A stretch of 64,000 nt of DNA. It comes from Melioribacteraceae bacterium. Lineage in GTDB: Bacteria > Bacteroidota > Ignavibacteria > Ignavibacteriales > Melioribacteraceae. The position numbers and the translations under genes are program-made. The stretch lies in contig JAIOZI010000021.1 in assembly GCA_021740785.1 (NCBI GenBank), positions 824 to 64,823 on the forward strand, in the 5' to 3' direction. The stretch's first letter is position 1, and the number at the start of each line of letters is the position of its first letter. Shown here piece by piece: positions 17,139-37,213 of this stretch. Below the pieces are notes generated by a model that saw only the letters and a program-made list of their open reading frames with translations, was not told where the DNA came from and made no database searches.

Positions 17139-17308
17139 GCGGTAGTGTTAATTGCCTTTAAGCTGAAAATCTAAAAATCATAATTAGCAGCTACTCATTC
17201 AATAATAAACTTGCAATCGTTATTATTTTCCCTATTTTCCTTGCTAAATAAGTCATGTCTCTCTAATTTTGATCAAACAAATTCTTCATATTTATTGAGG
17301 TGAAAGTA

Positions 17309-18487
17309 ATGAGAACAATCGTTGCCCTGCCCGGCGATGGGATCGGGAAAACTGTATTACCGGAATCAATTAGATTACTGGATGCTGTAGGTTTTGAAGC
17401 AAATTATGTACACGGAGATATTGGCTGGGAATTTTGGCAGAAGGAAGGGAATGCACTTCCTCAAAGGACAATCGACTTACTGGAAGAACATAAAATCGGA
17501 CTATTCGGAGCCATTACAAGCAAACCGAAAGACGACGCTGTGAATGAATTAGCGCCTGAACTTAAAGATAAAGGTTATGTTTATTTTAGTCCTATCGTTG
17601 GATTGCGCCAGCATTTTAATTTGGATATCTGCATCAGACCTTGTAAAGCGTTTAAAGGCAATCCCCTTAATTTTATCAGAAAAGACAGCACAGGCGGATT
17701 TGTTGAACCGCCGGTTGATACTGTTATCTTCAGGCAGAATACAGAGGGAATGTACGGCGGAATAGAATGGACAAACCCGCCGCAAATAGTTCGCGAAGCT
17801 TTTGAAACTCATCCTAAAATGAAAAAATTCGCACATGTAAAGAGTGAGGATCTGGCTATTTCTACAAGAATAGTTTCCCGGCAGGCTACCGAAAGGATAT
17901 TCAGGGCAGCTTTTGAATATGCAACAAAATTCGGGTATAAGAACGTTACTGTATGCGAAAAACCAAACGTACTTAGAGAAACTTCCGGGATGTACATAAA
18001 GATTGCAAGACAAATACATAAAGAATATCCCGGAATTCAATTGTGGGATACTAACATCGATGCACAAATGATGTGGCTTACTAAGAATCCCGAAGATTAC
18101 GGAGTAATTGTTGCTGAAAATATGTTCGGTGATATCATCAGCGATGGTTTTGCTGGTTTAGTCGGCGGATTGGGATTTGCATGCAGTGCCAACATAGGCG
18201 ATGAAGTTGCGGTTTTCGAACCAACTCATGGATCAGCACCGAAATATGAAAAACTGAATCCCTCAATCGTTAATCCTATTGCAATGTTTCTAAGCGCTTG
18301 CATGATGCTCGAACATCTCGGAGAAGCAGAGAAAGCCGAACAAATTAGGAAAGCAATTGCCGAAGTTATTGAAGAAGGTAAGGTGCAGACTTATGATATG
18401 AAAAAACTTAGAGGCGGAGCGGATGTGTTTGAGAATGGAGCCTGTACTACCCAAGAAATGACCGATGCAGTAATTTCTAAACTATAA
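17309..18487 (+). CDS. beta-decarboxylating dehydrogenase of the isocitrate / homoisocitrate / isopropylmalate dehydrogenase family
   Basis: LPGDGIG, RQNTEGMYGG, NMFGDIISD, FEPTHGSAP family blocks. ATG at 17309 follows GAGGTG; the ORF track starts at GTG 17300. Substrate not assignable by eye. Confidence 0.75.
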   Translation: MRTIVALPGDGIGKTVLPESIRLLDAVGFEANYVHGDIGWEFWQKEGNALPQRTIDLLEEHKIGLFGAITSKPKDDAVNELAPELKDKGYVYFSPIVGLRQHFNLDICIRPCKAFKGNPLNFIRKDSTGGFVEPPVDTVIFRQNTEGMYGGIEWTNPPQIVREAFETHPKMKKFAHVKSEDLAISTRIVSRQATERIFRAAFEYATKFGYKNVTVCEKPNVLRETSGMYIKIARQIHKEYPGIQLWDTNIDAQMMWLTKNPEDYGVIVAENMFGDIISDGFAGLVGGLGFACSANIGDEVAVFEPTHGSAPKYEKLNPSIVNPIAMFLSACMMLEHLGEAEKAEQIRKAIAEVIEEGKVQTYDMKKLRGGADVFENGACTTQEMTDAVISKL

Positions 18488-18491
18488 ACTA

Positions 18492-18607
18492 ATGTTACGC
18501 ATAACTGTCATTCTGAACGAAGTGAAGAATCTCAAAGTTTATAATTTGCACAATTTTGAGAAATTTCGCTCCACTCAATATGACAAAATGAATAATTTGC
18601 GTAACAT
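18492..18607. repeat. ~115-nt nested imperfect inverted repeat in the dehydrogenase-cstA spacer
   Basis: Outer arms atgttacgc (18492..18500) and gcgtaacat (18599..18607) are exact. Inner ~30-nt arms are gtcattctgaacgaagtgaagaatctcaaa (18507..18536) and tttgagaaatttcgctccactcaatatgac (18555..18584), about two-thirds complementary. Confidence 0.7.
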
Positions 18608-18631
18608 GCGTTATCAAGTAATGAGGAAATC

Positions 18632-20266
18632 ATGACCGCAATAATACTGATACTTGCGGCTGTCGTTATTTATTTTATTAGTTACAATACTTACGGGAAA
18701 TTTATATCCGGTAAAATTTCAATTGATGATAATCATGAAACTCCGTCGCATACTCAATACGACGGAGTTGATTACATTCCTGCCAAATCACCTATCTTAC
18801 TCGGACATCATTTTGCATCAATTGCCGGAGCCGGACCAATAGTAGGACCCGTAATTGCCGTTGCTTTCGGATGGATCCCTGTGTATGTCTGGATTTTAAT
18901 CGGTGCAGTCTTTATTGGCGGCGTCCATGATTACACAACAATCATTGCATCAGTCAGACATAAAAGTAAATCAATCGGACAAATAATTGAAGCATACATC
19001 GGTATTTCCGGTAAACGCATGTTTCTATTTTTTGCATGGGCAACATTAATATTAATTATTGCCGTGTTTGCAATTATTGTCGGTGATACTTTTACGAGCA
19101 TACCTGCCGTTGGAACATCGGCAATCCTGTTTATCCTTCTCGCCATTGTGTTTGGTTTAACAATCTACCGGTTTAATATTCCTTTGTGGATTGCCACAAT
19201 AATTGGTGTCACTCTTTTATTTTTATCGGCTTATGCTGGACAAGTTTTCCCGATTTATCTCAGTAAAGAATTGTGGATGATAATCATATTCGCTTACATT
19301 TTCGTTGCATCAATCACGCCGGTTTGGATTCTGCTTCAGCCTCGAGATTATCTTAATTCATTTTTTCTGTATGCTATTCTCATTTTGGGTGTGTTGGGAA
19401 TAATCTTCGCAGCTCCGGCATTAAATGTTCCGACATTTACACAATTCCATCTCGATAAACTGGGATTCCTCTTCCCAGCCCTATTTGTTACCGTTGCATG
19501 CGGAGCAATCAGCGGATTCCACTCAATAGTTGCAAGCGGTACAACAGCAAAACAATTGGATAAAGAAAGCGATGCCCGGCTGATAGGTTACGGGGGAATG
19601 TTAATTGAAGGCGTGCTGGCGGTACTCGCAATGATCGCAGTTGCATCTCTTGATCATGATGTATTTCTTAATACATTGCAAAATAACGGACCGGTTGCCG
19701 CATTTTCATTGGGCGTTGGTAATTTCATATCGGCAGTACCGGTTTTAAATTTATCATTTGAAGCTGCACAGGCTTTTGCTGCGCTTGCAGTTGCAGCCTT
19801 TGCATTAACTACTTTGGATACCGCAACCAGGCTGGCTCGATATTCGTTCCAAGAATTTTTCGAAGTTTCGACAAAAGAAGAAAATCCCAAATGGAATAAC
19901 CGATTCACTGCAACTGCTGTTTCGGTATTTGTCGGCATTGCTCTTACATTCAGCGGACAAACAATGGCAATCTGGCCTATCTTCGGAAGTGCAAATCAAA
20001 TGTTGGCTGCTTTAGCATTACTGGCAATTACCGTTTGGCTGTCACATCTTAAGAAAAGCTATACATTCACAATTATTCCGATGTATTTCATGTTCGCAGT
20101 AACATTAGCGGCGTTGTTGATGCTTTTTTATAATAACTTGGTACATAATAATAATATTGTTCTTGCGCTGATCTCTTTGTTTTTATTTTTATTGGCAATT
20201 GTTTTAGGCGTGAAAGCATATAAAGCAATAAGACTTGAAGAATCCTTAATCAAACCGATTACCTGA
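18632..20266 (+). CDS. cstA: carbon starvation protein A family transporter (peptide/pyruvate uptake)
   Basis: 544 aa, polytopic. N-terminal YGKFIS..., LGHHFASIAGAGPIVGPV, GGVHDY: CstA signature region. Confidence 0.85.
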   Translation: MTAIILILAAVVIYFISYNTYGKFISGKISIDDNHETPSHTQYDGVDYIPAKSPILLGHHFASIAGAGPIVGPVIAVAFGWIPVYVWILIGAVFIGGVHDYTTIIASVRHKSKSIGQIIEAYIGISGKRMFLFFAWATLILIIAVFAIIVGDTFTSIPAVGTSAILFILLAIVFGLTIYRFNIPLWIATIIGVTLLFLSAYAGQVFPIYLSKELWMIIIFAYIFVASITPVWILLQPRDYLNSFFLYAILILGVLGIIFAAPALNVPTFTQFHLDKLGFLFPALFVTVACGAISGFHSIVASGTTAKQLDKESDARLIGYGGMLIEGVLAVLAMIAVASLDHDVFLNTLQNNGPVAAFSLGVGNFISAVPVLNLSFEAAQAFAALAVAAFALTTLDTATRLARYSFQEFFEVSTKEENPKWNNRFTATAVSVFVGIALTFSGQTMAIWPIFGSANQMLAALALLAITVWLSHLKKSYTFTIIPMYFMFAVTLAALLMLFYNNLVHNNNIVLALISLFLFLLAIVLGVKAYKAIRLEESLIKPIT

Positions 20267-20280
20267 ATAATGGAGAATAT

Positions 20281-20832
20281 ATGAAAGAAGAATTAAAAAA
20301 TATCTGGCCGGAAATAGAATGGATAAAAGATAATGAACTAAAAGAAAAAGTTTATAAATGCTGGGAATACGCAATTGATAATAGTGTTCTCACAATTGAA
20401 GATTTGGAAATAATTCCCTTTTCCCTTTTGATTGATAACTGCAGCATCTCTTTTATGAATCACAAACGAACCGCTGTACAGCTCTCGGTTGAGATTGCCA
20501 AAATTATGCAGAATAATTTTAATGATGATGTTAATATCGATATGGATTTTCTAATAGCCGGCGCAATTTTAATTGATGTAGGCAAACTGCTTGAATATGA
20601 AAAAGTTGACGGCAAATTGACAACCAGCAAGGAAGGGAAATTATTACGTCATCCTTTCAGCGGAGTTTCGATTGCCGATAGATTCGATCTTCCTGTTGAA
20701 GTGCAGCATATAATTGCATATCATTCAAAGGAGGGGGATTTAGGAAAGCGTACAATTGAATCGATAATTGTTCATCACGCTGATTTTGTAAGCTTCGAAC
20801 CCTTCAAGGATTCAGCATGTTTAAAATTATAG
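20281..20832 (+). CDS. HD-superfamily-like protein with degenerate HD motif
   Basis: NHKRTAVQL...AGAILIDVGK...AYHSKEG...VHHADF resembles the HD/HDIG layout, but the canonical LHDiGK reads LIDVGK (His lost). Confidence 0.4.
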   Translation: MKEELKNIWPEIEWIKDNELKEKVYKCWEYAIDNSVLTIEDLEIIPFSLLIDNCSISFMNHKRTAVQLSVEIAKIMQNNFNDDVNIDMDFLIAGAILIDVGKLLEYEKVDGKLTTSKEGKLLRHPFSGVSIADRFDLPVEVQHIIAYHSKEGDLGKRTIESIIVHHADFVSFEPFKDSACLKL

Positions 20833-20862
20833 TTTATTAAAGAAAAGTTTATTGAGGAACAG

Positions 20863-22836
20863 ATGCCACAAAATATGATAGAAAAAATAGTACAGAAATT
20901 TGCAGTTGGACTGGATGAGGGACAAATCGTTAAATCCGGTGATTACGTATCAATAAAACCCGCTTACGTTATGACTCACGACAACACAGGCGCAGTTATT
21001 CCTAAATTTAAAAGTATCGGTGCAGAAAAATTTGCCGATCCGCGTCAAGTTGTTCACACTCTCGATCATAACATCCAGGATAAGAGTGAAAAGAATCTGC
21101 AAAAATATCAGAAGATAGAAGAGTTTTCCAAATCAATGGGTGCGGATTTTTATCCCGCCGGTCGCGGAATTGGTCACCAAATTATGTGTGAAGAAGGTTA
21201 CGCCTTCCCGGGAACTATGGTTGTGGCTTCGGACAGTCATTCCAACATGTACGGCGGATTGGGCTGTTTGGGAACTCCGATAGTTAGAACCGATGCGGCT
21301 GCTATTTGGGCTACCGGAAGAACATGGTGGCAGATTCCGCCGGTCGCAAAAGTAGAATTAAAAGGTAAGCTTAACCCGGGAGTAGTCGGGAAAGATGTGA
21401 TAATTGCACTTTGCGGATTTTTTAATAATGACGAAGTTCTCAATCATGTTATTGAATTCACCGGCAGCGGTGTAGAGTACTTATCGATTGATCAAAGATT
21501 ATCAATTGCAAATATGACAACCGAATGGGGCGCGCTTGCTGGTGTTTTCCCAATTGATAATAAAACAATCGATTGGCTTGAGAATCGTACTGAATTTATA
21601 TCGGAGCGAGGACTCGCAGGAGTTAATTCTGATTCAGACTCCAACGGAATTCATCCCAGAATTAATAAATCTAAAATTGAACAGCTCAAAAGTACGATGG
21701 ACGAGATCAAACCGGATGAGAATTCATATTATGCAAAAACACTAACCATTGAATTGACAACAATAGAACCGCATATATCCGGACCGAATTCAGTAAAAGT
21801 GATGAACCCGGTTTCCAAATTAAAATCTGAAAGGATTAAAGTTGACAAAGCATACCTGGTTTCGTGTGTAAATTCCAGGTTGGAAGATATAGCCGAAGCG
21901 GCAAATGTAGTTAAGGAAAAGAAAATTGCCGATCATGTTAAATTTTATATTGCGGCAGCTTCGAGTGAAGTTCAGGCTGAAAGTGAAAAGTTGGGATACT
22001 GGCAATTATTAATTGATGCCGGTGCAATTGAGCTTCCTCCCGGATGCGGACCATGTATCGGACTTGGAACCGGTTTGCTCGAAGATGGTGAAGTCGGGAT
22101 TTCAGCAACAAACAGAAATTTTAAGGGAAGAATGGGATCGCGTGATGCCGCCGCATATTTGGCTTCTCCGGCAGTTGTAGCGGCTTCTGCTATATCAGGA
22201 TTTATTGATTATTATGGTGATATTTCTCCAACAAATATTAATGCCGGGATGATTGAAAATGAAAGTCAGGATGAAGGAGCTTCATCGGTAAAAATCCTTG
22301 ATGGTTTCCCGGGGAAACTTGAAGGCAGGCTGTTGTTTTGTCATCAGAATAATTTAAACACGGATGGGATTTATCCTGGTAAATATACATACGTAGATGA
22401 CTTCACACCGCGACAGCAGGCTGATGTGGTGATGGAAAACTATGATCCCGAATTTAAGAAAATTGTTCTAGAGGGAGATATTTTAGCAGGCGGATTCAAT
22501 TTCGGCAGCGGCAGTTCAAGAGAACAAGCTGCCACCGCATTGAAATACCGGGGGATTCAATGTGTTATCGCAGGTTCGTTCAGTGCTACATATATGCGGA
22601 ATGCTATAAACAACGGCTTTCTTGTAATCGAATGCCCGAAACTTGCTAAAGATTTGTTAACCGAATTTGGATCGGATAAACTAACAATAAACACCGGTCT
22701 GCCTGTTACAATTGATTTTCAAAAATCGGTTGTGTCGTTCAATAACAAAGATTACAAAATTCCGCCTGTAGGTGAGGCTGCTCAGGAATTAATAATCGAC
22801 GGCGGATTGGAAAATTGGGTAAAGAATAATTTGTAA
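20863..22836 (+). CDS. single-chain aconitase-family hydro-lyase, homoaconitase (fungal LYS4)-like
   Basis: 657 aa with catalytic and swivel domains fused. VMTHDNT, HTLDHNIQDKSEKNLQKY, VASDSHSNMYGG, Fe-S cysteine contexts SCVNSR and GCGPCIG, swivel GSGSSREQAA. Length and N-terminal blocks resemble LYS4 from memory rather than AcnA/AcnB. Confidence 0.65.
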   Translation: MPQNMIEKIVQKFAVGLDEGQIVKSGDYVSIKPAYVMTHDNTGAVIPKFKSIGAEKFADPRQVVHTLDHNIQDKSEKNLQKYQKIEEFSKSMGADFYPAGRGIGHQIMCEEGYAFPGTMVVASDSHSNMYGGLGCLGTPIVRTDAAAIWATGRTWWQIPPVAKVELKGKLNPGVVGKDVIIALCGFFNNDEVLNHVIEFTGSGVEYLSIDQRLSIANMTTEWGALAGVFPIDNKTIDWLENRTEFISERGLAGVNSDSDSNGIHPRINKSKIEQLKSTMDEIKPDENSYYAKTLTIELTTIEPHISGPNSVKVMNPVSKLKSERIKVDKAYLVSCVNSRLEDIAEAANVVKEKKIADHVKFYIAAASSEVQAESEKLGYWQLLIDAGAIELPPGCGPCIGLGTGLLEDGEVGISATNRNFKGRMGSRDAAAYLASPAVVAASAISGFIDYYGDISPTNINAGMIENESQDEGASSVKILDGFPGKLEGRLLFCHQNNLNTDGIYPGKYTYVDDFTPRQQADVVMENYDPEFKKIVLEGDILAGGFNFGSGSSREQAATALKYRGIQCVIAGSFSATYMRNAINNGFLVIECPKLAKDLLTEFGSDKLTINTGLPVTIDFQKSVVSFNNKDYKIPPVGEAAQELIIDGGLENWVKNNL

Positions 22837-22959
22837 TATAATTACCGATTTAGATTGACAGTTTCCGAAATTTTGATTTATTGTAGGTAACTGAATTTTG
22901 TTGTTTATTTCGCTCACTCTGGTAAATAATAAAATAAATAAATTAAATGGAGGTGAGCT

Positions 22960-23427
22960 ATGCAATTCGTACATGAATTTCAAAATCCGCGTAACCTTTA
23001 TGAAAAATTGATTCGTGATTATGAACAGTTAGATATGGTAATCAGCGGAGATAATATTTTTAATTTTGTTACTTCAGCCTACTTAATTCTTGAATGGGTT
23101 AAAAAATGCGACGTTTCCGAAGGAATGAAAAGATTTCTGAAGAGAGCTTCGTCTGATAAGAATGTAAAAATCTGTAAGGATATTCTTTTCTGCAAAAAGA
23201 AATTTACCGTATTTATTGAAGACCCGAATTTAGAAGACGGGTCTGAATTCAAACACAAAAGACGCGTATCCGAATACGATATACATGCGTATAAAAACGG
23301 GACTAAAAAATTTCTTCTACGGATAGATGATGAAGAATATGATCCGTTTCAATTCAAAGAAGACATTATAGAATTGTATGATGTCTATTTCAAATTAAAA
23401 GGCTATTCCCGTTCCGAAATGTTATAA
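22960..23427 (+). CDS. hypothetical protein (orphan, 155 aa, Lys/Glu-rich)
   Basis: ATG preceded by GGAGGTGAG. No recognisable motif. Flanked by 123 nt and 458 nt of non-coding DNA. Confidence 0.5.
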   Translation: MQFVHEFQNPRNLYEKLIRDYEQLDMVISGDNIFNFVTSAYLILEWVKKCDVSEGMKRFLKRASSDKNVKICKDILFCKKKFTVFIEDPNLEDGSEFKHKRRVSEYDIHAYKNGTKKFLLRIDDEEYDPFQFKEDIIELYDVYFKLKGYSRSEML

Positions 23428-23885: not shown

Positions 23886-25319
23886 ATGGGAAAATCAATA
23901 TCTAGAATCATTTCCGAATTTGCGGTTAACCTCAAATATGAAGACCTTCCACAAAATGTAATTCACGAAGTAAAGAGATTTCTCTACGACTCTATCGGAT
24001 GTGCATTCGGCGGATTTCACACGAAAGATGTAAATATTATGCGTGATATTTATAAGGAAATTGGCGGTAAGGAAGAAGCAATTGTTATAGGATTCGGTGA
24101 TAAAATTCCGGCTGTTAACGCTGCACTTGTAAATTCATTAGCTGTAAGATCGCTTGATTTTAATGATATTTATTGGAAAGAAGATCCGTCTCATCCGTCT
24201 GATTTAATTCCCGCTGCATTAGCTGCCGGTGAAATGGTAAACGCATCAATGAAGGAAGTAATTACAGCAATAGTTTTAGCATATGAGTTTGAGCAGAGAC
24301 TTTGTTTATTTGCAGCACCCGGAATAAGGGAGCGTAAATGGCATCATGCAACTTTAACTCAATTTGTTTCACCGGTAGTAGCGAGCAAAGTGATGGGTTT
24401 AAGTGTTGAACAAATGATTAATGCTATTGGAATCAGCGGTTCGCATAACCATACAATCGGATGCCCAACCGCAGGCAAATTAACAATGATGAAAAATACC
24501 GTTGACCCAATGGCTGTGCAATCCGGTGTATTTGCTGCATTGATGGCGAAGAAAGGTTACAGTGGCACCGAGAAAGTTTTTGAAGGTAAAGAAGGATTTA
24601 TGGATTGTTTTATGGGATGGGATTCAAAAAATGAAACTGTAAAACCTGTCAATATGGAAGGAAGGGAAGGACAAAGTAAATGGGGTTGGAATGTTGAAGC
24701 GCTTACCAGTGGACTTGGTGAAAACTATAAAATTCTTGAATGCAGTATGAAAGCTTTTCCAACTGAGGCGCTGACGCATACACATATCAGCGCAACATTA
24801 AAGACGGTAATAAATAATAATATTTCTTATGACCAAATTGATGAAGTAACGGTAACTACAATTGCTCGTGCTTGCGATATACTTTTCGATCCGCATAAAT
24901 ACAGACCGGAATCTCGTGAAACTGCAGATCACTCCCTACCCTATTGTATTGCCGCTGCATTGGTCGATCATAAAATTTCAACACAGTCATTTAGTGACGA
25001 AAAAATGCAAGACCCGAAAATTTGGGAAGTGATTGATAAAATTAAAGGGGAAGCCTCTGAAGAATTTGAAAAAATGTTCCCGGTAAAACAACCTTCGAAG
25101 GTAGTCGTGAAAACAAAAGACGGAAATGTGTATTCGGAATATTTAGAATATCCTAAAGGTGACCTGCGTGAACCGATGACGCAGGATGATCTTGATAATA
25201 AATTTGAAGGATTATCTTCTGAATTGGTGAGCAAAGAAAAGCAAAAAGAAATAAAAGAAATGATCTTCAACGCCGAAAAATATTCTGCAAAAGAATTTAT
25301 GAATAACTTGGTTTTTTAA
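23886..25319 (+). CDS. MmgE/PrpD-family dehydratase (2-methylcitrate dehydratase-like)
   Basis: 477 aa. The N-terminal FAVNLKYEDLP..V....K..LYDSIGCAFGG layout and overall length are typical of PrpD/MmgE. Confidence 0.75.
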   Translation: MGKSISRIISEFAVNLKYEDLPQNVIHEVKRFLYDSIGCAFGGFHTKDVNIMRDIYKEIGGKEEAIVIGFGDKIPAVNAALVNSLAVRSLDFNDIYWKEDPSHPSDLIPAALAAGEMVNASMKEVITAIVLAYEFEQRLCLFAAPGIRERKWHHATLTQFVSPVVASKVMGLSVEQMINAIGISGSHNHTIGCPTAGKLTMMKNTVDPMAVQSGVFAALMAKKGYSGTEKVFEGKEGFMDCFMGWDSKNETVKPVNMEGREGQSKWGWNVEALTSGLGENYKILECSMKAFPTEALTHTHISATLKTVINNNISYDQIDEVTVTTIARACDILFDPHKYRPESRETADHSLPYCIAAALVDHKISTQSFSDEKMQDPKIWEVIDKIKGEASEEFEKMFPVKQPSKVVVKTKDGNVYSEYLEYPKGDLREPMTQDDLDNKFEGLSSELVSKEKQKEIKEMIFNAEKYSAKEFMNNLVF

Positions 25320-26204: not shown

Positions 26205-26226
26205 ATAATTTTAAAAACGGTTTGAA

Positions 26227-27450: not shown

Positions 27451-27452
27451 AA

Positions 27453-29003
27453 ATGAAATTGATAAAAAATGCAGCGGGCAGATTAGTACCGGGAATAGTT
27501 AATAATCAAAAACAAATTCCATTTAAAGGAATCGGGAAACACAAGCCAACCGGCAGAAAGGCAAAACCAATGATAAAAAGTTGTGCCGATTTCCCGGAGG
27601 ATGGAAACAAGGTTGTGAAGAATCTCAAAGATGCTTTGAAGAAATCCGGGTTGAAAGACGGGATGACAATATCAACGCATCATCATCTTCGAAACGGTGA
27701 TGTTGTAACCAACTACCTTTTTGATGTAATAAAATCTATGGGTATAAAAAATATCAGGTGGTATCCGACTGCATCATTCCCCTGTCATGAACACTTAATA
27801 AAATATCTTGATGACGGAACAATTCACCACATCGAAGGCAGTATGAACGGACCTTTGGGCAGATATACTTCTCACGGGAAAATGAAGGGTATTGGCGTAC
27901 TCCGTTCACACGGAGGCAGATATCAATCAATTCAGGATGGTGAAGTTCATATTGATATTGCAGTGATTGCCTCACCAACCGCAGATCAATTCGGTAACGC
28001 TACAGGTGACCGGGGACCATCAGCGTGCGGCTTACTTGGTTTTGCTCTCGCAGATTCGGAGTATGCAGATAATGTGATTGTTGTTACAGATAATTTGGTT
28101 GAATTCCCTTGTTACCCATGGCAGATTCAGGGCAACAATGTTGATCATGTTGTAAAGATTGATTCATTAGGCGATCCGGCTAAGATTGTAAGCGGAACTA
28201 CGCAGGTAACTAAAAGCCCGGACAGACTACTAATAGCCGAATACGTTGCACAATTTTTGGATGAATCCGGAATCATGAAAAATGGATTTTCATTTCAAGC
28301 CGGAGCCGGCGGGACTAACCTGGCATTTGCTCTTTACTTAAAAGAAAGAATGATAAAAAAGAATGTGAAAGCTAAATTCATTCGCGGCGGAAGCACAAAA
28401 TATCTAGTTGAAATGCTTAAAGAAGGATTAACCGAATATATACTGGATGGTCAAACATTCGATCTTGATGGTGTTCGTTCGATGCGTGAAAATCCGAATC
28501 ATGTTAACACTTCCCCGTTCACAAGTTATAACTATCACGGTAAAGGAAATTTTGCATCGATGGTTGATGCTGTTGTTTTAGGCGCAACCGAAGTAGACTT
28601 AAATTTTAATGCTAATGTTGTAACTCACTCCGACGGTTATTTATTACACGGAATCGGAGGCTGGCAGAATTGTCTCTTCTCTAAATGTACAATACTTGCT
28701 ATCCCGTCTTTTAGGGACAGAATACCTGTTATTGTTGATGAAGTAACAACATTAGTCGGACCCGGTGAACTGATTGATGTAATTGTAACAGAACGTGGTA
28801 TTGCAATCAATCCTAAACGGAAAGATTTGCTTAAAGCTGTTAAAGGAAGCGGTCTGCCGGTAAAATCAATTAATGAAATCAAAAAAGAAATAGATGATAT
28901 CTGCGGTGTTCCGGCAAAACCAAAATTGAATAAAGATAAAGTTGTTGCTGTAATTAAATGGGTTGATGGTACTTTGCTGGATTCAGTTTTTCAGGTTGAA
29001 TAA
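27453..29003 (+). CDS. citF: citrate lyase alpha subunit (citrate CoA-transferase)-like
   Basis: About 516 aa. ISTHHHLRNGD block and CoA-transferase family length. ATG at 27453 lies 3 nt after the citDE stop; the ORF track opens at TTG 27432. Confidence 0.7.
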   Translation: MKLIKNAAGRLVPGIVNNQKQIPFKGIGKHKPTGRKAKPMIKSCADFPEDGNKVVKNLKDALKKSGLKDGMTISTHHHLRNGDVVTNYLFDVIKSMGIKNIRWYPTASFPCHEHLIKYLDDGTIHHIEGSMNGPLGRYTSHGKMKGIGVLRSHGGRYQSIQDGEVHIDIAVIASPTADQFGNATGDRGPSACGLLGFALADSEYADNVIVVTDNLVEFPCYPWQIQGNNVDHVVKIDSLGDPAKIVSGTTQVTKSPDRLLIAEYVAQFLDESGIMKNGFSFQAGAGGTNLAFALYLKERMIKKNVKAKFIRGGSTKYLVEMLKEGLTEYILDGQTFDLDGVRSMRENPNHVNTSPFTSYNYHGKGNFASMVDAVVLGATEVDLNFNANVVTHSDGYLLHGIGGWQNCLFSKCTILAIPSFRDRIPVIVDEVTTLVGPGELIDVIVTERGIAINPKRKDLLKAVKGSGLPVKSINEIKKEIDDICGVPAKPKLNKDKVVAVIKWVDGTLLDSVFQVE

Positions 29004-29005: not shown

Positions 29006-29027
29006 AAGACGGGCGAATACCCGTCTT
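29006..29027. terminator. bidirectional rho-independent terminator
   Basis: aagacggg-cgaata-cccgtctt flanked by an A-run (5') and aataatttt (3'). It lies between the convergent citF and ferredoxin-like genes. Confidence 0.7.
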
Positions 29028-29034
29028 AATAATT

Positions 29035-32617: not shown

Positions 32618-32846
32618 ATTGGGGAATTAACTCAAATAGCATGCCATATCTTATTTTGTTCAATAGGATAGAATAAAAGACAATGTGTTGCATTATGCCG
32701 ACAAATACCGTCTATAACATGTTTCAAAATTCAGACAGTATAATTACAAAGATATTTTAGTCTAATAAAAGGATGTTGGTTTTTGAGTAGAAAGGTTAAC
32801 AGATATGAAAGCTCCCGAATCAACAAAATTCAGGAGCTTTTGTGAA

Positions 32847-34379
32847 TTAAATATCGAATTTAATACCTTGTGCAAGAGGCAGTTCAGTACTCCAGTTAAT
32901 TGTGTTAGTTTGGCGGCGCATATAAGCTTTCCATGCATCGGAACCGGATTCACGACCACCGCCGGTTTCTTTCTCACCGCCGAATGCTCCACCGATTTCA
33001 GCTCCGGATGTTCCAATATTTACATTAGCAATTCCGCAATCCGAACCGGTATGCGATAGAAATTCTTCCGCTTCTCGCATATTTAAAGTGAATATCGCCG
33101 ATGATAATCCTTGAACAACATCATTATGAATTTTTATCGCTTCGGAAACTTCACCTTTGTATTTAATCAGATATAAAATTGGTGCGAATGTTTCTTCCTG
33201 AACAATCTGATAATGATTTTCAACTTCGACAATTGCCGGTTTAACGTAACATCCCGATTCATAACCTTCACCATCAAGCACTTCACCGCCGTAAATAACT
33301 TTTCCGCCTTCTTCTGCTATCTTCTTCTGAGCATCAACGAACATTTCAACTGCAGCTTTATCAATTAGCGGACCCATATGATTATTTTCATCCAACGGCG
33401 TTCCAATCTTAATAGAGCCGTATGCTTTAACCAAAGTCTCTTTTACCTTATCGTAAATTTCTTCATGAATAATTAACCGGCGAGTTGTTGTGCATCTCTG
33501 TCCGGCAGTTCCAACAGATCCAAACACAATAGCCGGAATTGCCATTTTAAGATCTGCGCTTGGAGTCATGATTATTGCATTGTTGCCGCCGAGTTCAAGA
33601 ATGGTTTTTCCAAATCTTTTTGAGACAACTTCTGCTGCATGTTGACCAACAGCGGTGGAACCGGTGACGGAAACCAGAGGTATTCTTTTATCATTCAGCA
33701 TTTTTTCACCGACGCTCGATCCCCTGCCGATTATCAGTGAGAACAATCCTTCCGGCAGGTTGTTCTCTTTTATAACATTAGCTATTATTTTCTGAACTGC
33801 GATTGCAGTCAACGGAACTTTTGATGATGGTTTCCACAAATTTGAATCACCGCAGACAGCCGCGATCATTGCATTCCAAGACCATACAGCAACCGGGAAA
33901 TTAAATGCACTGATTGTAGTTACGACTCCCAACGGATGATATTGATCATACATTCTGTGTTGGGGGCGCTCTGAATGCATTGTAAAACCATATAATTGAC
34001 GAGATTGCCCAACTGCAAAATCACAGATGTCTATCATCTCCTGAACTTCTCCTAATCCTTCTTGAATTGATTTTCCCATTTCGTAAGTAACCAAAGCTCC
34101 GAGAGGTTCTTTATATTTTCGTAATTCCAATCCAATTTGTCTAACTATTTCACCGCGTTTTGGGGCGGGAACCATTCTCCAATCTAAATATGCTTGATGT
34201 GCTTTTTCAACTACATTATCATAATCTTTTTCAGATGCGAGGTAAACCGTCGCAATTAATTTTCCATCAACAGGAGAATGAACCTTCAGTTCACCCTGGT
34301 CATTTGTACTGTTCCATTCAGTGCCTGTAGATGCGCCCAAATTAAACTCCTCAATTCCGAGCTCTTGCAAAAACTCCAT
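32847..34379 (-). CDS. ALDH7 (antiquitin)-type aldehyde dehydrogenase, likely 2-aminoadipate-6-semialdehyde / piperideine-6-carboxylate dehydrogenase
   Basis: PAPKRGEIVRQIG..LR, EMGKSIQEGLGEVQEMIDICDFAVGQSRQLYG (the ALDH7 hallmark), ELGGNNA, GQRCTT catalytic Cys. Confidence 0.8.
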   Translation of the reverse strand: MEFLQELGIEEFNLGASTGTEWNSTNDQGELKVHSPVDGKLIATVYLASEKDYDNVVEKAHQAYLDWRMVPAPKRGEIVRQIGLELRKYKEPLGALVTYEMGKSIQEGLGEVQEMIDICDFAVGQSRQLYGFTMHSERPQHRMYDQYHPLGVVTTISAFNFPVAVWSWNAMIAAVCGDSNLWKPSSKVPLTAIAVQKIIANVIKENNLPEGLFSLIIGRGSSVGEKMLNDKRIPLVSVTGSTAVGQHAAEVVSKRFGKTILELGGNNAIIMTPSADLKMAIPAIVFGSVGTAGQRCTTTRRLIIHEEIYDKVKETLVKAYGSIKIGTPLDENNHMGPLIDKAAVEMFVDAQKKIAEEGGKVIYGGEVLDGEGYESGCYVKPAIVEVENHYQIVQEETFAPILYLIKYKGEVSEAIKIHNDVVQGLSSAIFTLNMREAEEFLSHTGSDCGIANVNIGTSGAEIGGAFGGEKETGGGRESGSDAWKAYMRRQTNTINWSTELPLAQGIKFDI

Positions 34380-34533
34380 TTATAACTCCTTGTTTTCTTT
34401 TCTGAATAACTTCCTTTTACTTTTTCAATTTCTTGATCTTTCACTTTATGGTTTTTATGTGTCATCATTAAATGACATTGATCAACTTTCACTCATAAAC
34501 GGATTGATCAAACTCAACCAAGTCAATATGAAT

Positions 34534-35862
34534 TTAACCCAGAACCTCTTTCGTCTCTTTAAATTTGATATTCATTTTCTCAAGTTCATCGAGCAGCGGT
34601 TCATAAATTTCAGGCATAACCGGCACTTGCACACCTGTTATATTGATTTTTCCATCAACAATTAATTTTGTTGCAATTGCAGCAGGCAGACTCACTGTTC
34701 TAGCCATTGCCGAATCACCGTTCGGTATTCCGAAATCGATCAACAGAGAGGTGATATGTTCCTTTTTATTTCCGTCATATTCGGCAATAAAATCATGCTG
34801 AAGCACTATCATATCCCTTTCACCTTTTTTGTAAGGCATCATTTTTAACATTCGATTTGCAAGAATATCAAGATAAGTTACGGGGTCAGCATCGATTTTC
34901 TCATCACTTAATAATCCAAGCCATTCAAATCTCTTAATGATTTCAGAATCTGCTTCAATACCAAGATGATCAGCAACTTTAGACTTTATACTATCCGGGC
35001 TATCAGTTCCAATTAATTTTGCTGCAACTTCTGCAAAAGTTTTATCCGCAAGTTCCGGTCTTTCAGTATCATCAAGATAACCGAGTTTCGCAATGTTAAG
35101 CAGAGTACTGCACCATCCGGGATTTCTGAAAGTACCTCTAAAAATAGTTTCTGCATCATTTAATTGATAGAGCGGTTTGTAGATCATCGAATCCCTATTG
35201 GGATAAACTTCGAGAGTGCCGAGAGTTTCAACATCTTTATTCCAGTGATTCTTAAATAAATCCTTCCCTTCAATCGATTTTTCAATCCCGTCTTTTAAAT
35301 AACGCGCATTATTTCTACCCGCCATCACAACACCGCGGGGGCTCCATGAAAATTTATAACCGAATGGATTATCATTCGCTTCAGGTGCAGGCAATCCGCC
35401 GCAAACCGATTCGAATGAGACAATCTTTCCACCGTTTTTTTCAACATCATGAATTATTTTCATTGCGCTCATATGATCAATACCGGGGTCCAATCCTATT
35501 TCATTCAGAAGTAACAATCCCTTTTCTTTTGCTTCATCATTAAGTTCATTCATCGCATCGCTGACGTAGCTGGTCGTAACCAGATTAACGCCATGTTTCA
35601 AACACAATTTAGCAACCTTAACATGATACGTATAAGGAAGCAGACTAATAGTTACAACTGAATCTATTACTAATTCTTCCAATTTCACGTCATCTTTCAC
35701 ATTCAATTCAATTGCTTTGCCTTTCGGGTGATTTTCAATTAAGGCTACGGCTTTACTTACAGTTCTACTTGCAACGATTAATTCAATTTCCGGTTGTTCC
35801 AGAAGATACCTTACCAAGGGTTGTGTGACTAATCCAGCTCCTAATACAAGTACTTTCTTCAT
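34534..35862 (-). CDS. saccharopine dehydrogenase (L-glutamate-forming, LYS9/SDH-type)
   Basis: MKKVLVLGAGLVTQPLVRYL Rossmann fold, 442 aa, GLDPGIDHM block typical of saccharopine reductase. Confidence 0.75.
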   Translation of the reverse strand: MKKVLVLGAGLVTQPLVRYLLEQPEIELIVASRTVSKAVALIENHPKGKAIELNVKDDVKLEELVIDSVVTISLLPYTYHVKVAKLCLKHGVNLVTTSYVSDAMNELNDEAKEKGLLLLNEIGLDPGIDHMSAMKIIHDVEKNGGKIVSFESVCGGLPAPEANDNPFGYKFSWSPRGVVMAGRNNARYLKDGIEKSIEGKDLFKNHWNKDVETLGTLEVYPNRDSMIYKPLYQLNDAETIFRGTFRNPGWCSTLLNIAKLGYLDDTERPELADKTFAEVAAKLIGTDSPDSIKSKVADHLGIEADSEIIKRFEWLGLLSDEKIDADPVTYLDILANRMLKMMPYKKGERDMIVLQHDFIAEYDGNKKEHITSLLIDFGIPNGDSAMARTVSLPAAIATKLIVDGKINITGVQVPVMPEIYEPLLDELEKMNIKFKETKEVLG

Positions 35863-35908
35863 AAAATACTCCTTAATAGATTGTCGATTATTGATATATC
35901 ATTTACGA

Positions 35909-37213
35909 TCATTTTAATTGATCGAGATATTCCTTCAAATGTTTGTAATTAGGTGTCAGTTCACCCTTGTACACAATTACTGCCCTTTTAATCTGTTCCG
36001 GGTAATTTACTTTCTCGAACGTAAGTGAAAGATCAGCATTTACGATACCGGGAACAAAGGGCATCAAGGATTTGCTGAACTCAATCGATGAATTTCTAGG
36101 AAGTTCAGTCGGCAAATTATCAACCGAGATGTCAACCACACCTTCACCTTCGTAGCCATCGGTTATTTCATCAGTCGAAGGATTATATACAAATGCCGGA
36201 TTATCAGATTCAGTTGCTTTGACGGTAAACTCAATTCCCCCGTCAATATCGCAGCTTATATCGGCGATCACCAAAAGTTTCAGATCATCAATATTCTGTT
36301 TTACAAATTCCTTTGTTACGATACGCGGGTAACGTTCATCCCAGTAGACAGCATTTACAAGGAGCGTTACATACTTGAGATATTTTTCGAACTTTGATTT
36401 GTATTTATGCGGGTTATCATAATAATCCTGTAACTCAAATTTATTCGAACTTTCAACCGGTTCAACCAAGTCATTTTCTTTAAAGATAACTTTGTAAAAT
36501 TTCCTGGTGTTTGTATTTTTTAGCGTGAGTAATTCATCCGGAGTGATTTCTTCATACGGAAGTGCGGCAAAAACCTCTTGAGCGCCGTTGGAAACATTTC
36601 CGTATCCGGCAAATCCAAAAACATAAGGCGCAAATTTTTCAGGTAATCCTTCGGATGCTATTTCCTCACCGACTTTTGCAATTTCATCTATCGCTTCAAC
36701 AACGTCTTTGTACTCATAGGCTGATTTAATTTTTAGGAGAGGTGTATCATAACCCAATGCTTTTAGTCTTAATCCAAAACCATGCAGACCGTCAATCATT
36801 CCCGCCAAACCTGCATATTTACCGAAGAAAACCAATCTTCTTCCGGATTCGTTAGCAATGCATTCGTAATCAATCAATGTGCATTTAAGATCAAGAAGTT
36901 TTTGGAGCATCGGCATATTGTAATCTTGACCTTTGATTGTATGAGAAAAATAGATGTATGTTTTCTCTTCTTTCAATAATTCAGTTGGAATTTCTTTTAC
37001 TGCAAAAATTACAGGCGCTTGATCAATAATTTCGTCGACACTTGCTCCAGCATCAATAAATTCCTGATCACTGAAAGCTCTTTCAGGAAAAGGTTGAATT
37101 ATTGTTTTTATTTTATGATTATCATGAAGTGATTTGATGTGTTCAGGAATTAATGGTACGCGTTTTTCCCAGATATTTTTATCTTCGCGTCGAATTCCGA
37201 TAAATTTTTCCAT
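35909..37213 (-). CDS. lysine-ketoglutarate reductase / saccharopine dehydrogenase (L-lysine-forming) of the alanine-DH/PNT fold
   Basis: N-terminus IGIRREDKNIWEKRVPLIPEH...IIQPFPERAFSDQEFIDAGA matches the LKR domain of AASS-type enzymes. Confidence 0.7.
   Translation of the reverse strand: MEKFIGIRREDKNIWEKRVPLIPEHIKSLHDNHKIKTIIQPFPERAFSDQEFIDAGASVDEIIDQAPVIFAVKEIPTELLKEEKTYIYFSHTIKGQDYNMPMLQKLLDLKCTLIDYECIANESGRRLVFFGKYAGLAGMIDGLHGFGLRLKALGYDTPLLKIKSAYEYKDVVEAIDEIAKVGEEIASEGLPEKFAPYVFGFAGYGNVSNGAQEVFAALPYEEITPDELLTLKNTNTRKFYKVIFKENDLVEPVESSNKFELQDYYDNPHKYKSKFEKYLKYVTLLVNAVYWDERYPRIVTKEFVKQNIDDLKLLVIADISCDIDGGIEFTVKATESDNPAFVYNPSTDEITDGYEGEGVVDISVDNLPTELPRNSSIEFSKSLMPFVPGIVNADLSLTFEKVNYPEQIKRAVIVYKGELTPNYKHLKEYLDQLK

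Follow-up and report, generated by a model that had tools for sequence, protein, structure and literature searches.

How might a bacterium that turns lysine into 2-aminoadipate make use of the product? The question is raised by a 64,000-nucleotide stretch of DNA (the window) from a Melioribacteraceae (Ignavibacteria) MAG. On its minus strand lies a complete operon, LKR-SDH-ALDH7, and on its plus strand a cluster holding a six-gene module that encodes an HICDH-like dehydrogenase, an HD protein, a LYS4-type homoaconitase, a PrpD-family protein, a CitD-CitE fusion and CitF. The first-pass annotation of this DNA had proposed that enzymes of the two clusters could run the aminoadipate pathway backwards to degrade lysine. 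All the genes that it listed were found, at its coordinates or a few codons away and in the families that it gave (Table 1; the CitF start codon is taken as in the NCBI record). Three genes within the plus-strand cluster had been overlooked, encoding a CstA-like transporter, the HD-domain protein and a YefM/YoeB insertion. The CitF and ALDH genes are 3.8 kb apart, and the three genes between the clusters, secreted or without known function, are unrelated to either. Terminators follow both the CitF and the ALDH genes, showing that the clusters are transcribed separately, as convergent units.

Table 1. Features of the two clusters, with positions counted from the first letter of the window
Feature	Coordinates	Strand	Basis
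HICDH-like beta-decarboxylating dehydrogenase	17309..18487	+	Pfam Iso_dh, 273 bits
CstA-family transporter, optional module member	18632..20266	+	Pfam CstA, 550 bits
Small HD/HDIG-domain protein, core module member	20281..20832	+	TIGR00277 HDIG
Single-chain LYS4-type homoaconitase (homoisocitrate <-> cis-homoaconitate)	20863..22836	+	TIGR00139, 873 bits (cutoff 530)
155-aa ORF, probably an insertion outside the module	22960..23427	+	No Pfam or NCBIfam match
MmgE/PrpD-family protein, putative (de)hydratase (cis-homoaconitate <-> homocitrate)	23886..25319	+	Pfam MmgE_PrpD_N and _C
YefM/YoeB toxin-antitoxin pair, operon insertion outside the pathway	25656..26204	+	Pfam PhdYeFM_antitox and YoeB_toxin
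CitD(ACP)-CitE fusion, putative gamma and beta subunits of homocitrate lyase	26227..27450	+	Pfam ACP (PF06857) and HpcH_HpaI
CitF, acyl-ACP:carboxylate transferase (alpha subunit)	27453..29003	+	Pfam CitF, 463 bits
Bidirectional hairpin terminator, end of module operon	29006..29027	.	9-bp GC-rich stem directly 3' of CitF stop codon
Hairpin terminator, end of LKR-SDH-ALDH7 operon	32808..32840	-	14-bp stem directly 3' of ALDH stop codon
ALDH7-type aminoadipate-semialdehyde/P6C dehydrogenase	32847..34379	-	NF050084, NCBIfam equivalog for L-piperidine-6-carboxylate (aminoadipate-semialdehyde) dehydrogenase, 818 bits (cutoff 730)
Saccharopine dehydrogenase (glutamate-forming; LYS9/AASS-SDH type)	34534..35862	-	Pfam Sacchrp_dh_NADP and Sacchrp_dh_C
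Lysine-ketoglutarate reductase, AASS-LKR type	35909..37213	-	Pfam AlaDh_PNT_N and _C

The LKR is of the catabolic type represented by human AASS, unlike yeast LYS1: among solved structures it is closest to the AASS LKR domain (296 bits over the full length), and it matches LYS1 at only 49 bits. The closest solved relatives of the saccharopine dehydrogenase are yeast LYS9 (2axq; 336 bits) and the SDH domain of AASS (283 bits). No homologue of the window LKR exceeds 67% identity, whereas module proteins have relatives at 80-86%; the two clusters thus differ in evolutionary history, which speaks against the proposed pathway.

The dehydrogenase is HICDH-like rather than IDH-like, as the first-pass annotation had held. 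Its loop, Y-F-S97-P-I99-V100-G-L-R, equals the loop YSSPIVALR of Schizosaccharomyces pombe HICDH (3TY3), the two having the substrate loop SPIV in common, and SPIV is invariant in all 13 sequences aligned from three lineages. Between lineages, members of the subfamily are 66-85% identical. Ile99 is aligned to Asn115 of Escherichia coli IDH, an isocitrate-binding residue, and Val100 takes the place of Arg85 of Thermus HICDH. The top NCBIfam matches are AksF homoisocitrate dehydrogenases, below cutoff. Judged by its sequence, the aconitase-family gene product is a true LYS4-type homoaconitase and not an aconitase, scoring 873 bits with TIGR00139 versus just 194 bits with the mitochondrial aconitase model. 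Its sequence includes two Fe-S ligand motifs, SCVNSR and GCGPCIG, and its nearest solved relative is the large subunit of Methanocaldococcus jannaschii homoaconitase (235 bits).

The reverse route had been built on the premise that homoaconitase needs a partner, in agreement with the demonstration that homocitrate/homoisocitrate isomerisation in fungi requires two dehydratases (Fazius et al. 2012, PMC3556520). Matching this need, the arrangements of Ignavibacteria, of the candidate division KSB1 and of soil/peat lineages place two distinct dehydratases beside the dehydrogenase: a PrpD-like protein with a LYS4-like one, or an aconitase-like protein of ~600 aa with a HacAB-like enzyme. The PrpD-like gene gives way to an additional aconitase-family dehydratase in the KSB1 and the "type E" loci. 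The window protein has the N and C domains of the MmgE/PrpD family, as had been claimed, but orthology to PrpD was rejected (90 bits with the PrpD equivalog, cutoff 575). Among solved structures it comes nearest to cis-aconitate decarboxylase (103 bits) and IDS epimerase, against only 50 bits for PrpD; by these comparisons it is closer to a decarboxylase and an epimerase than to PrpD, which counts against the proposed pathway. In the putative lyase, the CitD-CitE fusion scores 290 bits with the CitE equivalog, under its cutoff of 443, and CitF scores 513 bits with TIGR01584, the citrate-lyase alpha equivalog (cutoff 501), such that citrate may be a CitF substrate. The ACP prosthetic-group serine (Ser19 in the window) is kept in 12 of 13 sequences, yet the lyase activation genes citC, citX and citG were found neither in the window nor at any module locus, another point against the pathway.

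More than 100 loci carry the six-gene module. They come from no fewer than five lineages and show four or more gene orders, spread over Ignavibacteria, KSB1, Bacteroidales and soil/peat lineages. Across the 89 loci longer than 8 kb, only its six families recur (HICDH-like, 69 loci; HD, 54; aconitase-family, 59; PrpD-like, 36; CitDE, 56; CitF, 60), the next family reaching 11. The module is strongly conserved: the key enzymes are accompanied by another dehydratase and by a lyase of the CitDEF type, and the annotated genes of the module loci include no homocitrate synthase and no gene of LysW or LYS2 type. Against the proposed pathway, many Bacteroidales loci have CitDE-CitF with HICDH-HD and no dehydratase within 10 kb. 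CitMHS-type transporters, CstA and an M20 peptidase lie beside the module in several lineages.

The expectation that the two clusters would be conserved together failed. No saccharopine genes lie within 10 kb of the module in ~15 related Ignavibacteria loci or in the closest relatives, and a true ALDH7 near the module was found in none of 80 further metagenome loci; the adjacency seen in the window is weak evidence for a lysine link. At the level of whole genomes, an LKR homologue (P0333) lies on the same contig, of 4,216,492 bp, as an HD protein of the module (P0051), which speaks for a link. Physical linkage of the module to lysine genes is confined to the window species and the KSB1 lineage. 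There, loci L029, L069, L075 and L080 carry the operon TrmB-ALDH7-classIII aminotransferase-HICDH-HD-Acn-HacA-HacB-CitDE-CitF, conserved among proteins only 60-80% identical. Its ALDH is above the cutoff of the equivalog for P6C dehydrogenase (753 vs 730), and its aminotransferase, with 7VNO as nearest match, is by homology a lysine/ornithine-type omega-aminotransferase. The KSB1 operon provides independent support, as a second link to the conversion of lysine to aminoadipate by a different upstream route. Overall, the reverse aminoadipate idea is sustained by the enzyme types, the module and the KSB1 link, but not by co-conservation with the saccharopine genes.

On gene neighbourhood and sequence comparison, the module looks built for lysine breakdown, and we assign a probability of about one half to the following pathway. 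Lysine would be converted to 2-aminoadipate by known chemistry, through LKR, SDH and ALDH7 in the window genome and through the omega-aminotransferase and ALDH7 in KSB1. A putative aminotransferase would yield 2-oxoadipate, which the HICDH-like enzyme would reductively carboxylate to homoisocitrate; the LYS4-type homoaconitase would dehydrate this to cis-homoaconitate, the PrpD-family protein (in other lineages, the second aconitase-family enzyme) would rehydrate it to homocitrate, and the ACP-dependent CitDE/CitF lyase would cleave homocitrate to acetate and 2-oxoglutarate. The 2-oxoglutarate made would restore one of the two spent as amino acceptors, and the net reaction would be lysine + 2-oxoglutarate + CO2 -> 2 glutamate + acetate. 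Such a route would be redox-neutral and would work without oxygen, CoA-dependent oxidation or radical enzymes. One carbon longer, the module would be the counterpart of the reductive TCA sequence 2-oxoglutarate -> isocitrate -> citrate -> oxaloacetate + acetyl unit. The first-pass annotation knew of no described lysine degradation route of this kind, and a search of 8 million full texts turned up none. If the proposal is correct, the upper part of the fungal pathway for making lysine, run backwards, completes bacterial lysine catabolism, giving bacteria of several groups from sediment and soil an undescribed, oxygen-independent means of digesting lysine.

Exactly the two biosynthetically irreversible steps of the fungal pathway are replaced, homocitrate synthase by the CitDEF lyase and the ATP-dependent LYS2 reductase by the NAD-ALDH7, which favours the catabolic direction; the AASS-type LKR, the transporters, the M20 peptidase and the lack of biosynthetic lysine genes among those annotated at the loci would point the same way. 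Reductive carboxylation is uphill in energy, and the net module reaction is, by our own estimate from textbook values, close to equilibrium; thermodynamics leaves the direction unfixed. The same chemistry might run from 2-oxoglutarate and acetate to 2-oxoadipate or 2-aminoadipate, with the ACP-bound lyase as a homocitrate synthase independent of ATP and CoA and with the decarboxylating dehydrogenase providing the pull; the product might be destined for lysine synthesis or, as aminoadipate, for use as a solute or building block. The enzymes do belong to the type found in AAA biosynthesis, on the same estimate the reaction would go towards 2-oxoadipate when CO2 and NADH are low, most module loci are isolated from catabolic partners, and CitE-family enzymes such as malyl-CoA lyase have a condensing role in some pathways. 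To our knowledge, however, the CitDEF-type complexes described (citrate lyase, citramalate lyase) are all catabolic; the annotated genes of the loci include neither LysW/X/Z/Y/J/K nor an LYS2-like reductase or a homocitrate synthase; and transporters and a peptidase accompany the module. Moreover, the KSB1 ALDH7 and omega-aminotransferase make aminoadipate from lysine and are not reversible, so that a reversed module would bring two routes onto one product with no sink. We consider this direction quite improbable.

A different substrate, such as an alkyl- or carboxyalkyl-malate, would make the module a 2-oxoacid chain-length device working in either direction, its lysine links being coincidental or secondary. 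The dehydrogenase reaches none of the NCBIfam equivalog cutoffs for HICDH (283 vs 500) and contains insertions specific to its family, the chemistry of the PrpD-like and HD proteins is not established, few module loci are linked to lysine genes, and one (L110) adjoins a 2-hydroxyacyl-CoA dehydratase/beta-oxidation cluster instead. This alternative, which we consider unlikely but worth keeping in view, sits poorly with a homoaconitase far above its curated cutoff, with a dehydrogenase loop identical to that of fungal HICDH and with the conservation of the KSB1 operon specifically with an above-cutoff P6C/AASA dehydrogenase. Ordinary citrate fermentation, in which citrate lyase would work beside an aconitase and IDH supplying 2-oxoglutarate for glutamate synthesis, could account for the CitF score, for the CitMHS-family permease that follows HICDH-HD in some Bacteroidales loci, for the many Bacteroidales with CitDE-CitF and HICDH-HD only, and for the annotation of the dehydrogenase's closest solved structure as a putative NAD-IDH. 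It is very improbable given the HICDH loop and missing Asn115, the homoaconitase and CitE scores, and the lack of linked citC/X/G or oxaloacetate decarboxylase genes in Ignavibacteria; it would also render the second dehydratase superfluous and leave the ALDH7 and aminotransferase of the KSB1 operon without explanation.

In the proposed lysine-degrading pathway, the intermediate may be (S)-homocitrate rather than the biosynthetic (R)-homocitrate, because, by analogy, CitE-family lyases take (S)-series substrates and PrpD takes what si-type synthases make; this argument leaves unexplained the KSB1 variant, in which a PrpD-like enzyme is missing. The HD protein, nearly always adjoining the dehydrogenase where it occurs, has no place in the pathway, which also counts against it. 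It belongs to a family with over 4,700 protein-database clusters, has an HDxGK motif without its first His, and gave an AF2 model (pLDDT 86) whose top fold match, the YhaM HD domain (TM 0.66), is uninformative on its role. Among the remaining genes of the plus-strand cluster, the CstA-family gene has counterparts at the matching position solely in L002, L003, L088 and L096, the 155-aa ORF has a homologue only in L001, and the YefM/YoeB pair is limited to L009, L013 and L083.

All genes named by the first-pass annotation were found, in the families and at the positions it had assigned, although its list left out the CstA-like transporter, the HD protein and an inserted toxin-antitoxin pair (see the table). 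A hairpin terminator lies directly 3′ of citF, and between this terminator and the saccharopine operon lie three genes on the minus strand that encode secreted or unknown proteins; only one of them has family matches (BNR repeats, T9SS sorting domain). A promoter scan gave 57 hits against 60 expected. Immediately past the citF terminator, the NCBI record calls a small ferredoxin-like gene that is kept in three near-identical contigs (L066-L068).

Coordinates of module, lysine and accessory features (window positions unless a locus handle precedes them)
Feature	Location	Strand	Remark
Iso_dh-family dehydrogenase (HICDH-like)	first gene of 17309-29003	+	family match
CstA-like transporter	second gene of 17309-29003	+	family match
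HD/HDIG protein, 183 aa	20281-20832	+	
Aconitase-family protein, single chain, 657 aa	after HD gene in 17309-29003	+	
Orphan ORF, 155 aa	22960-23427	+	
MmgE/PrpD-family protein	between orphan ORF and YefM/YoeB pair	+	
YefM/YoeB toxin-antitoxin pair	25656-26204	+	
CitD(ACP)-CitE fusion, then CitF	end of 17309-29003	+	
LKR	35909-37213	-	first in saccharopine operon
Saccharopine dehydrogenase (SDH)	34534-35862	-	second in saccharopine operon
ALDH (ALDH7)	32847-34379	-	last in saccharopine operon, own terminator after
Ferredoxin-like gene, 62 aa	29035-29223	-	
BioF/Kbl-family acyltransferase	3045-4235		
Acyl-CoA dehydrogenase	48842-49996		
Multihaem c-type cytochrome	58899-61801	-	
Gap insertions, Ignavibacteria modules	window 22960-23427, 25656-26204; L002 7328-8509; L003 6781-8502; L011 5661-8470; L081 9608-9946, 15054-20552		
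ORF set upstream of CitDE, Bacteroidales	L018 5492-9849; L023 5794-9972; L032 7791-9967		
CitDE with two CitF paralogues	L018 10001-14520		
CitDE with altered ACP serine	L075 14500-15693		
Fumarase and Sacchrp_dh-family genes	L075 954-4062		
2-Hydroxyacyl-CoA dehydratase cluster	L110 669-9772	-	divergent from module

The window hydratase scored 873 bits against TIGR00139, the fungal-type homoaconitase model (cutoff, 530), compared with 194 bits against mitochondrial aconitase and 155 bits against AcnA, and its closest solved structure is a homoaconitase large subunit. It is a single chain, with Pfam Aconitase at residues 24-446 and Aconitase_C (swivel) at residues 466-592, and it contains the Fe-S cysteine ligand motifs SCVNSR and GCGPCIG. 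By score and architecture, it classifies as a LYS4-type homoaconitase. The dehydrogenase fell below all curated HICDH equivalogs (AksF, 283 versus 500; AksF2, 280 versus 540; iso_homocit_dh, 135 versus 680). Its top models are the methanogen homoisocitrate dehydrogenases; it forms a distinct subfamily with insertions of its own and, among solved relatives, ranks between a putative NAD-IDH and the Thermus HICDH. Its substrate loop reads Y-F-S97-P-I99-V100-G-L-R. In the HMMER alignment, Ser97 falls on Ser113 of Escherichia coli IDH and Ile99 on Asn115, so the dehydrogenase lacks the asparagine that binds the γ-carboxylate of isocitrate, and every IDH model scored far under its cutoff. Val100 aligns with Arg85 of Thermus HICDH. 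The deposited Schizosaccharomyces pombe HICDH (3TY3) has G-Y-S-S-P-I-V-A-L-R at the equivalent place, and the match of FSPIVGLR in the window to SSPIVALR in 3TY3 marks an HICDH-type loop, unlike the Ser-x-Asn of IDH or the Glu-x-x-Leu-Leu of IPMDH. A LYS12 sequence served only as bait in the PDB search that brought up 3TY3, and the deposited 3TY3 sequence alone is the evidence. S-P-I-V is invariant in 13 of 13 aligned module dehydrogenases, which come from three lineages and share 66 to 85% overall identity. Taken together, the hydratase score and the dehydrogenase loop make both proteins look like enzymes of the aminoadipate pathway rather than of the TCA cycle, an identification proposed by the first-pass annotation and now firmer than it could have known. 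Iterative, AksF-like elongation of 2-oxoadipate to 2-oxopimelate was considered and rejected, on the grounds that both the hydratase and the dehydrogenase loop belong to the single-round type of fungi.

The PrpD-like protein falls outside PrpD itself, scoring 90 versus 575 and 66 versus 458 with the PrpD equivalogs. It resembles cis-aconitate decarboxylase (103 bits against the solved structure) and IDS epimerase more than PrpD (35 to 50 bits), and its sequence places it in the MmgE/PrpD superfamily but no more narrowly. Between lineages, the PrpD-like gene and an extra aconitase-family gene swap for each other, which argues that the PrpD-like protein is a candidate (de)hydratase; the choice between PrpD and AcnD in the methylcitrate cycle is a precedent for such a swap. 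For the same reason, a role as a cis-homoaconitate decarboxylase, suggested by the similarity to cis-aconitate decarboxylase, was rejected as a lead. Two differing dehydratases accompany the dehydrogenase in the Ignavibacteria, KSB1 (a candidate division) and soil/peat arrangements, which fits the requirement of fungi for two enzymes to isomerise homocitrate to homoisocitrate (PMC3556520).

CitF passed the citrate-lyase alpha equivalog marginally (513 versus 501); CitE (290 versus 443) and CitD (47 versus 63.5) both missed theirs, with the Pfam domains present. The serine that carries the ACP prosthetic group (phosphoribosyl-dephospho-CoA) is Ser19 in the window, presumably the counterpart of Ser14 in E. 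coli CitD, and it is kept in 12 of 13 CitDE sequences. The remaining sequence, from the KSB1-type locus L075, has alanine (KADC versus RSDC); unless this is a sequencing variant, its ACP is inactive. Conservation of the serine fits poorly with the finding that citC, citX and citG are absent from the 64-kb window and the related loci examined. In other Ignavibacteria, the genes next in line after citF were considered as CitX/CitG and rejected, as they encode a patatin-like lipase and an uncharacterised small ORF. One Bacteroidetes MAG carries two CitF paralogues after CitDE, and several Bacteroidales have a conserved ORF set (approximately 136, 519, 124, 142 and 450 to 507 aa) directly upstream of CitDE.

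The HD protein is a core member of the module, paired most tightly with the dehydrogenase. Model and PDB fold searches returned a generic HD fold and no functional clue, and as a marker the protein gave thousands of clusters. Its alignment showed that the histidine of the canonical HDxGK motif is lost (I/C/A-D-V-G-K) and that H61, D99, H124, H143, H148, H165, H166 and D168 are invariant, which points to an unusual metal site and perhaps to an activity other than that of a phosphatase.

A scan of genomes with the CitDE fusion as query yielded 65 loci, and a metagenome scan with the dehydrogenase alignment yielded 80 loci and at least about 600 pattern-matched stretches; context look-ups added about 15 loci. 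When the ORFs of all 89 loci longer than 8 kb were clustered into families, the dehydrogenase recurred in 69, CitF in 60, the aconitase family in 59, CitDE in 56, the HD protein in 54 and the PrpD-like protein in 36; the next commonest family occurred in 11. This dominance of six families makes the module better conserved than could be seen from the window. At least five arrangements exist: HICDH-(CstA)-HD-LYS4-like-PrpD-like-CitDE-CitF in Ignavibacteria (A); TrmB-ALDH7-aminotransferase-HICDH-HD-Acn600-HacA-HacB-CitDE-CitF in KSB1 (B); CitDE-CitF with a divergent M20 peptidase and HICDH-HD, sometimes then a CitMHS-type permease, in Bacteroidales (C); HD-PrpD-like-LYS4-like-HICDH-CitDE-CitF on soil/peat contigs (D); and HICDH-HD-Acn600-(HacA)-CitDE-CitF (E). 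No dehydratase was found within 10 kb in the arrangement C loci. Homocitrate synthase was not found among the annotated genes at any module locus, and neither LysW-type genes nor an aminoadipate aminotransferase were found across the window or in related loci. In Ignavibacteria, the intergenic gaps of the module are repeatedly filled by differing defence or mobile genes (YefM/YoeB, SIR2-like, AIPR, a DUF4143 ATPase, YhcG nuclease, a 23S-rRNA-IVP/bAvd-like ORF, and a giant kinase with a multi-AAA protein), and the operon seems to be an insertion hot spot in which core gene order is retained. At locus L110, which has arrangement E, a divergent cluster encodes a 2-hydroxyacyl-CoA dehydratase D-component, a BcrAD/BadFG-type activator ATPase, an ADP-forming acyl-CoA synthetase, an SSF transporter, an enoyl-CoA hydratase, an SDR and a thiolase; its substrate may be 2-oxoglutarate/2-hydroxyglutarate or of the 2-hydroxyadipate type.

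The saccharopine genes of the window form a complete set of the catabolic type, in pathway order. LKR resembles the animal/plant catabolic AASS (human LKR domain, 296 bits; yeast LYS1, 49), SDH scored 336 bits against LYS9 and 283 against the AASS SDH domain, and the ALDH passed the curated P6C/aminoadipate-semialdehyde dehydrogenase model (818 versus 730). It was the closeness of these genes to the module that had motivated the idea of lysine catabolism, and this adjacency is not conserved. Module and saccharopine operon are convergent, separately terminated units; LKR, SDH and ALDH7 were not found within 10 kb of the module in about 15 other Ignavibacteria loci or in the closest relatives, and a true ALDH7 was absent from all 80 metagenome module loci. 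The top database homologue of LKR is 67% identical and the module proteins have relatives at 80 to 86%, in searches that, for LKR and the HD protein, were saturated by close relatives and inform distribution rather than deep phylogeny. Because of this gap, the saccharopine operon may have been acquired separately by this species, and for all these reasons the adjacency is weak evidence on its own.

Independent evidence for the lysine link is supplied by KSB1, where four loci (L029, L069, L075 and L080) carry the module, an ALDH7 and a class-III aminotransferase in a single operon of closely spaced genes, several of which overlap or abut in L029, with proteins 60 to 80% identical among the loci. 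The KSB1 ALDH passed the P6C-dehydrogenase model (753 versus 730), and the closest solved relative of the aminotransferase is 7VNO (402 bits), which we take to be a Pyrococcus enzyme of a group characterised as ornithine/lysine omega-aminotransferases. An omega-aminotransferase with ALDH7 constitutes the second of the known routes by which lysine becomes 2-aminoadipate; therefore, two upstream routes lie beside one downstream module in two phyla, a link stronger than the one originally drawn. LKR homologues are common in Ignavibacteria and are also found in KSB1, and one complete 4.2-Mb genome has LKR and the module at separate sites. In L075, the TrmB-ALDH7-aminotransferase-module operon is immediately preceded by genes for a two-subunit fumarase and a 382-aa Sacchrp_dh-family protein. 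An acyl-CoA dehydrogenase elsewhere in the window was rejected as a glutaryl-CoA dehydrogenase, being of the butyryl/acryloyl-CoA type.

Every step of the fungal pathway except the aminoadipate aminotransferase has its counterpart in the window, and the replaced steps are the two irreversible biosynthetic ones. A thioester-conserving CitDEF-type lyase would stand in for homocitrate synthase, whose driving force is the hydrolysis of a thioester, and an NAD-dependent ALDH7 for the ATP-dependent LYS2 reductase. The dehydrogenase would reductively carboxylate 2-oxoadipate with CO2 and NAD(P)H to homoisocitrate, which would pass through cis-homoaconitate to homocitrate, and the lyase would cleave homocitrate to acetate and 2-oxoglutarate. 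By either upstream route, the net balance would be lysine + 2-oxoglutarate + CO2 -> 2 glutamate + acetate, which is redox-neutral and so would suit anaerobes. CitE-family lyases act on the (S) series (the pro-3S arm of citrate, (S)-citramalate and (S)-citramalyl-CoA), and PrpD catalyses a syn elimination on the product of a si-type synthase. Because CitE is paired here with a PrpD-like enzyme, the intermediate is predicted by analogy to be (S)-homocitrate, not the (R)-homocitrate of homocitrate synthase and the aconitases. This would account for the use of a PrpD-type enzyme, and leaves the KSB1 variant, which has none, unexplained.

We give this reverse-aminoadipate reading of the module, first proposed from sequence alone, a probability of roughly 0.5: the enzyme identities, the conservation of the module and the KSB1 operon speak for it, and the adjacency that motivated it is its weaker part. 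The same chemistry could run forward, as biosynthesis. From textbook free energies (citrate synthase versus acetyl-CoA hydrolysis, aconitase and IDH), we roughly estimate that the net reaction of the module lies near equilibrium, so that high CO2 and a reduced nicotinamide pool allow the catabolic direction without proving it. All CitDEF-type complexes known to us are catabolic, ALDH7 cannot run backwards, and transporters and a peptidase accompany the module in several lineages; the catabolic direction is favoured on these grounds and the forward one appears unlikely. Slightly less unlikely, and still doubtful, is the same enzymology acting on another substrate. Only two lineages show the module linked to lysine genes, the Bacteroidales loci often have no linked dehydratases, and the core HD protein has no place in the proposed scheme, all of which fit the lysine reading poorly; the KSB1 operon, the homoaconitase score and the dehydrogenase loop are the evidence on the other side. 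Ordinary citrate metabolism, to which the marginal pass of CitF over the citrate-lyase cutoff could point, since it fits poorly with a homocitrate lyase, is improbable given the homoaconitase score and the HICDH-type loop. Slightly short of an even chance is the fuller form of the reverse-aminoadipate reading, in which many uncultured bacteria, anaerobic or from soil (Ignavibacteria, KSB1, soil/peat lineages and some Bacteroidales), would possess a new lysine route that proceeds by carboxylation, two dedicated dehydratases and homocitrate (possibly the unnatural (S) form) to a new ACP-dependent homocitrate lyase yielding 2-oxoglutarate and acetate, with the HD protein essential.

The module shares its LYS4-type homoaconitase and fungal HICDH loop with the upper alpha-aminoadipate pathway of fungi (LYS20/21, aconitase, LYS4 and LYS12) and of Thermus and archaea (HCS, HacAB and HICDH), and with the fungal version two separate isomerisation dehydratases (PMC3556520). 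Unlike that pathway, it has a CitDEF-type ACP lyase in place of homocitrate synthase, a PrpD-family protein rather than an aconitase as putative second dehydratase, and a conserved HD protein; its proposed direction is catabolic, and it occurs in soil bacteria and members of the FCB group with an anaerobic or facultative lifestyle. With citrate (pro-3S)-lyase and citramalate lyase it shares three functions, those of the CitE lyase, the CitF transferase and an ACP in which the serine for the prosthetic group is conserved, and citramalate lyase illustrates that the CitDEF architecture can cleave 2-substituted malates besides citrate. The module differs from these in its fused CitD and CitE, a CitE under the equivalog cutoff, the want of citC/citX/citG nearby, and lyase genes set among homoaconitase and HICDH genes, with homocitrate as the putative substrate. 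The methylcitrate cycle (PrpC, PrpD or AcnD+PrpF, AcnB and PrpB) likewise shifts a tricarboxylate hydroxyl with a PrpD-family dehydratase and an aconitase-family hydratase, and its PrpD/AcnD alternatives are mirrored by the swap between module lineages, whereas the module has a PrpD-like protein distant from PrpD, no PrpC, PrpB or PrpF, and a CitE-type lyase that is proposed to break the C-C bond of the tertiary alcohol. The reductive TCA segment from 2-oxoglutarate via isocitrate and citrate to oxaloacetate and an acetyl unit follows the same logic one carbon shorter, the module being its C6 analogue: Iso_dh reductive carboxylation, aconitase-type isomerisation and lyase cleavage would be common to both, whereas the module lyase is ATP-independent and ACP-dependent, the dehydratases are two distinct ones, and the purpose would be catabolic shortening of a C6 2-oxoacid rather than CO2 fixation. 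The upstream genes are those of ordinary bacterial lysine catabolism via 2-aminoadipate (saccharopine or LAT/P6C), but the fate of 2-oxoadipate would be new; a full-text literature search found no account of such a lysine route and only the fates via 2-oxoadipate dehydrogenase to glutaryl-CoA and via HglS to 2-hydroxyglutarate. Each of the families is already known; not previously known are their combination, the direction proposed for it and the putative activity as a homocitrate lyase. We classify the finding as a variant built from 2-oxoacid elongation enzymes and a citrate-lyase-type complex, not as a categorically new system.

If the reverse-aminoadipate reading is true, 2-oxoadipate would have a third fate, in addition to becoming glutaryl-CoA by oxidative decarboxylation or 2-hydroxyglutarate by an HglS-type reaction, and lysine a second anaerobic route, beside its fermentation by radical enzymes. 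Homocitrate lyase would be a new enzyme activity, a new homocitrate stereoisomer might appear in biology, and the module would be a natural reversal of 2-oxoacid chain elongation, because the two irreversible steps have been replaced. Metagenomes from sediment, peat and soil contain the module in abundance, and at present its genes carry the annotations isocitrate dehydrogenase, aconitase and citrate lyase; under this reading, the carbon and nitrogen flow of protein degradation would be mis-assigned whenever the metabolism of these uncultured groups is reconstructed. Such ATP-free, near-equilibrium chemistry would also be relevant to engineered production of adipate and 2-oxoadipate.

Two further window loci deserve mention. 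The class I/II "aminotransferase" near the window start was rejected as an aminoadipate aminotransferase, being a serine-palmitoyltransferase/BioF-type acyltransferase; its top model is the CFB-group serine palmitoyltransferase (503 bits versus a cutoff of 640), which hints that this Ignavibacteria lineage makes sphingolipids, and with its neighbours (GNAT, PPIase, DUF4835 and HHH_3) it is syntenic with close relatives. The multihaem cytochrome, which has c7/c3 and MtrC-like domains, adjoins an Fe-S/flavin oxidoreductase and suggests an anaerobic respiratory lifestyle, in line with the pathway's presumed anoxic setting.
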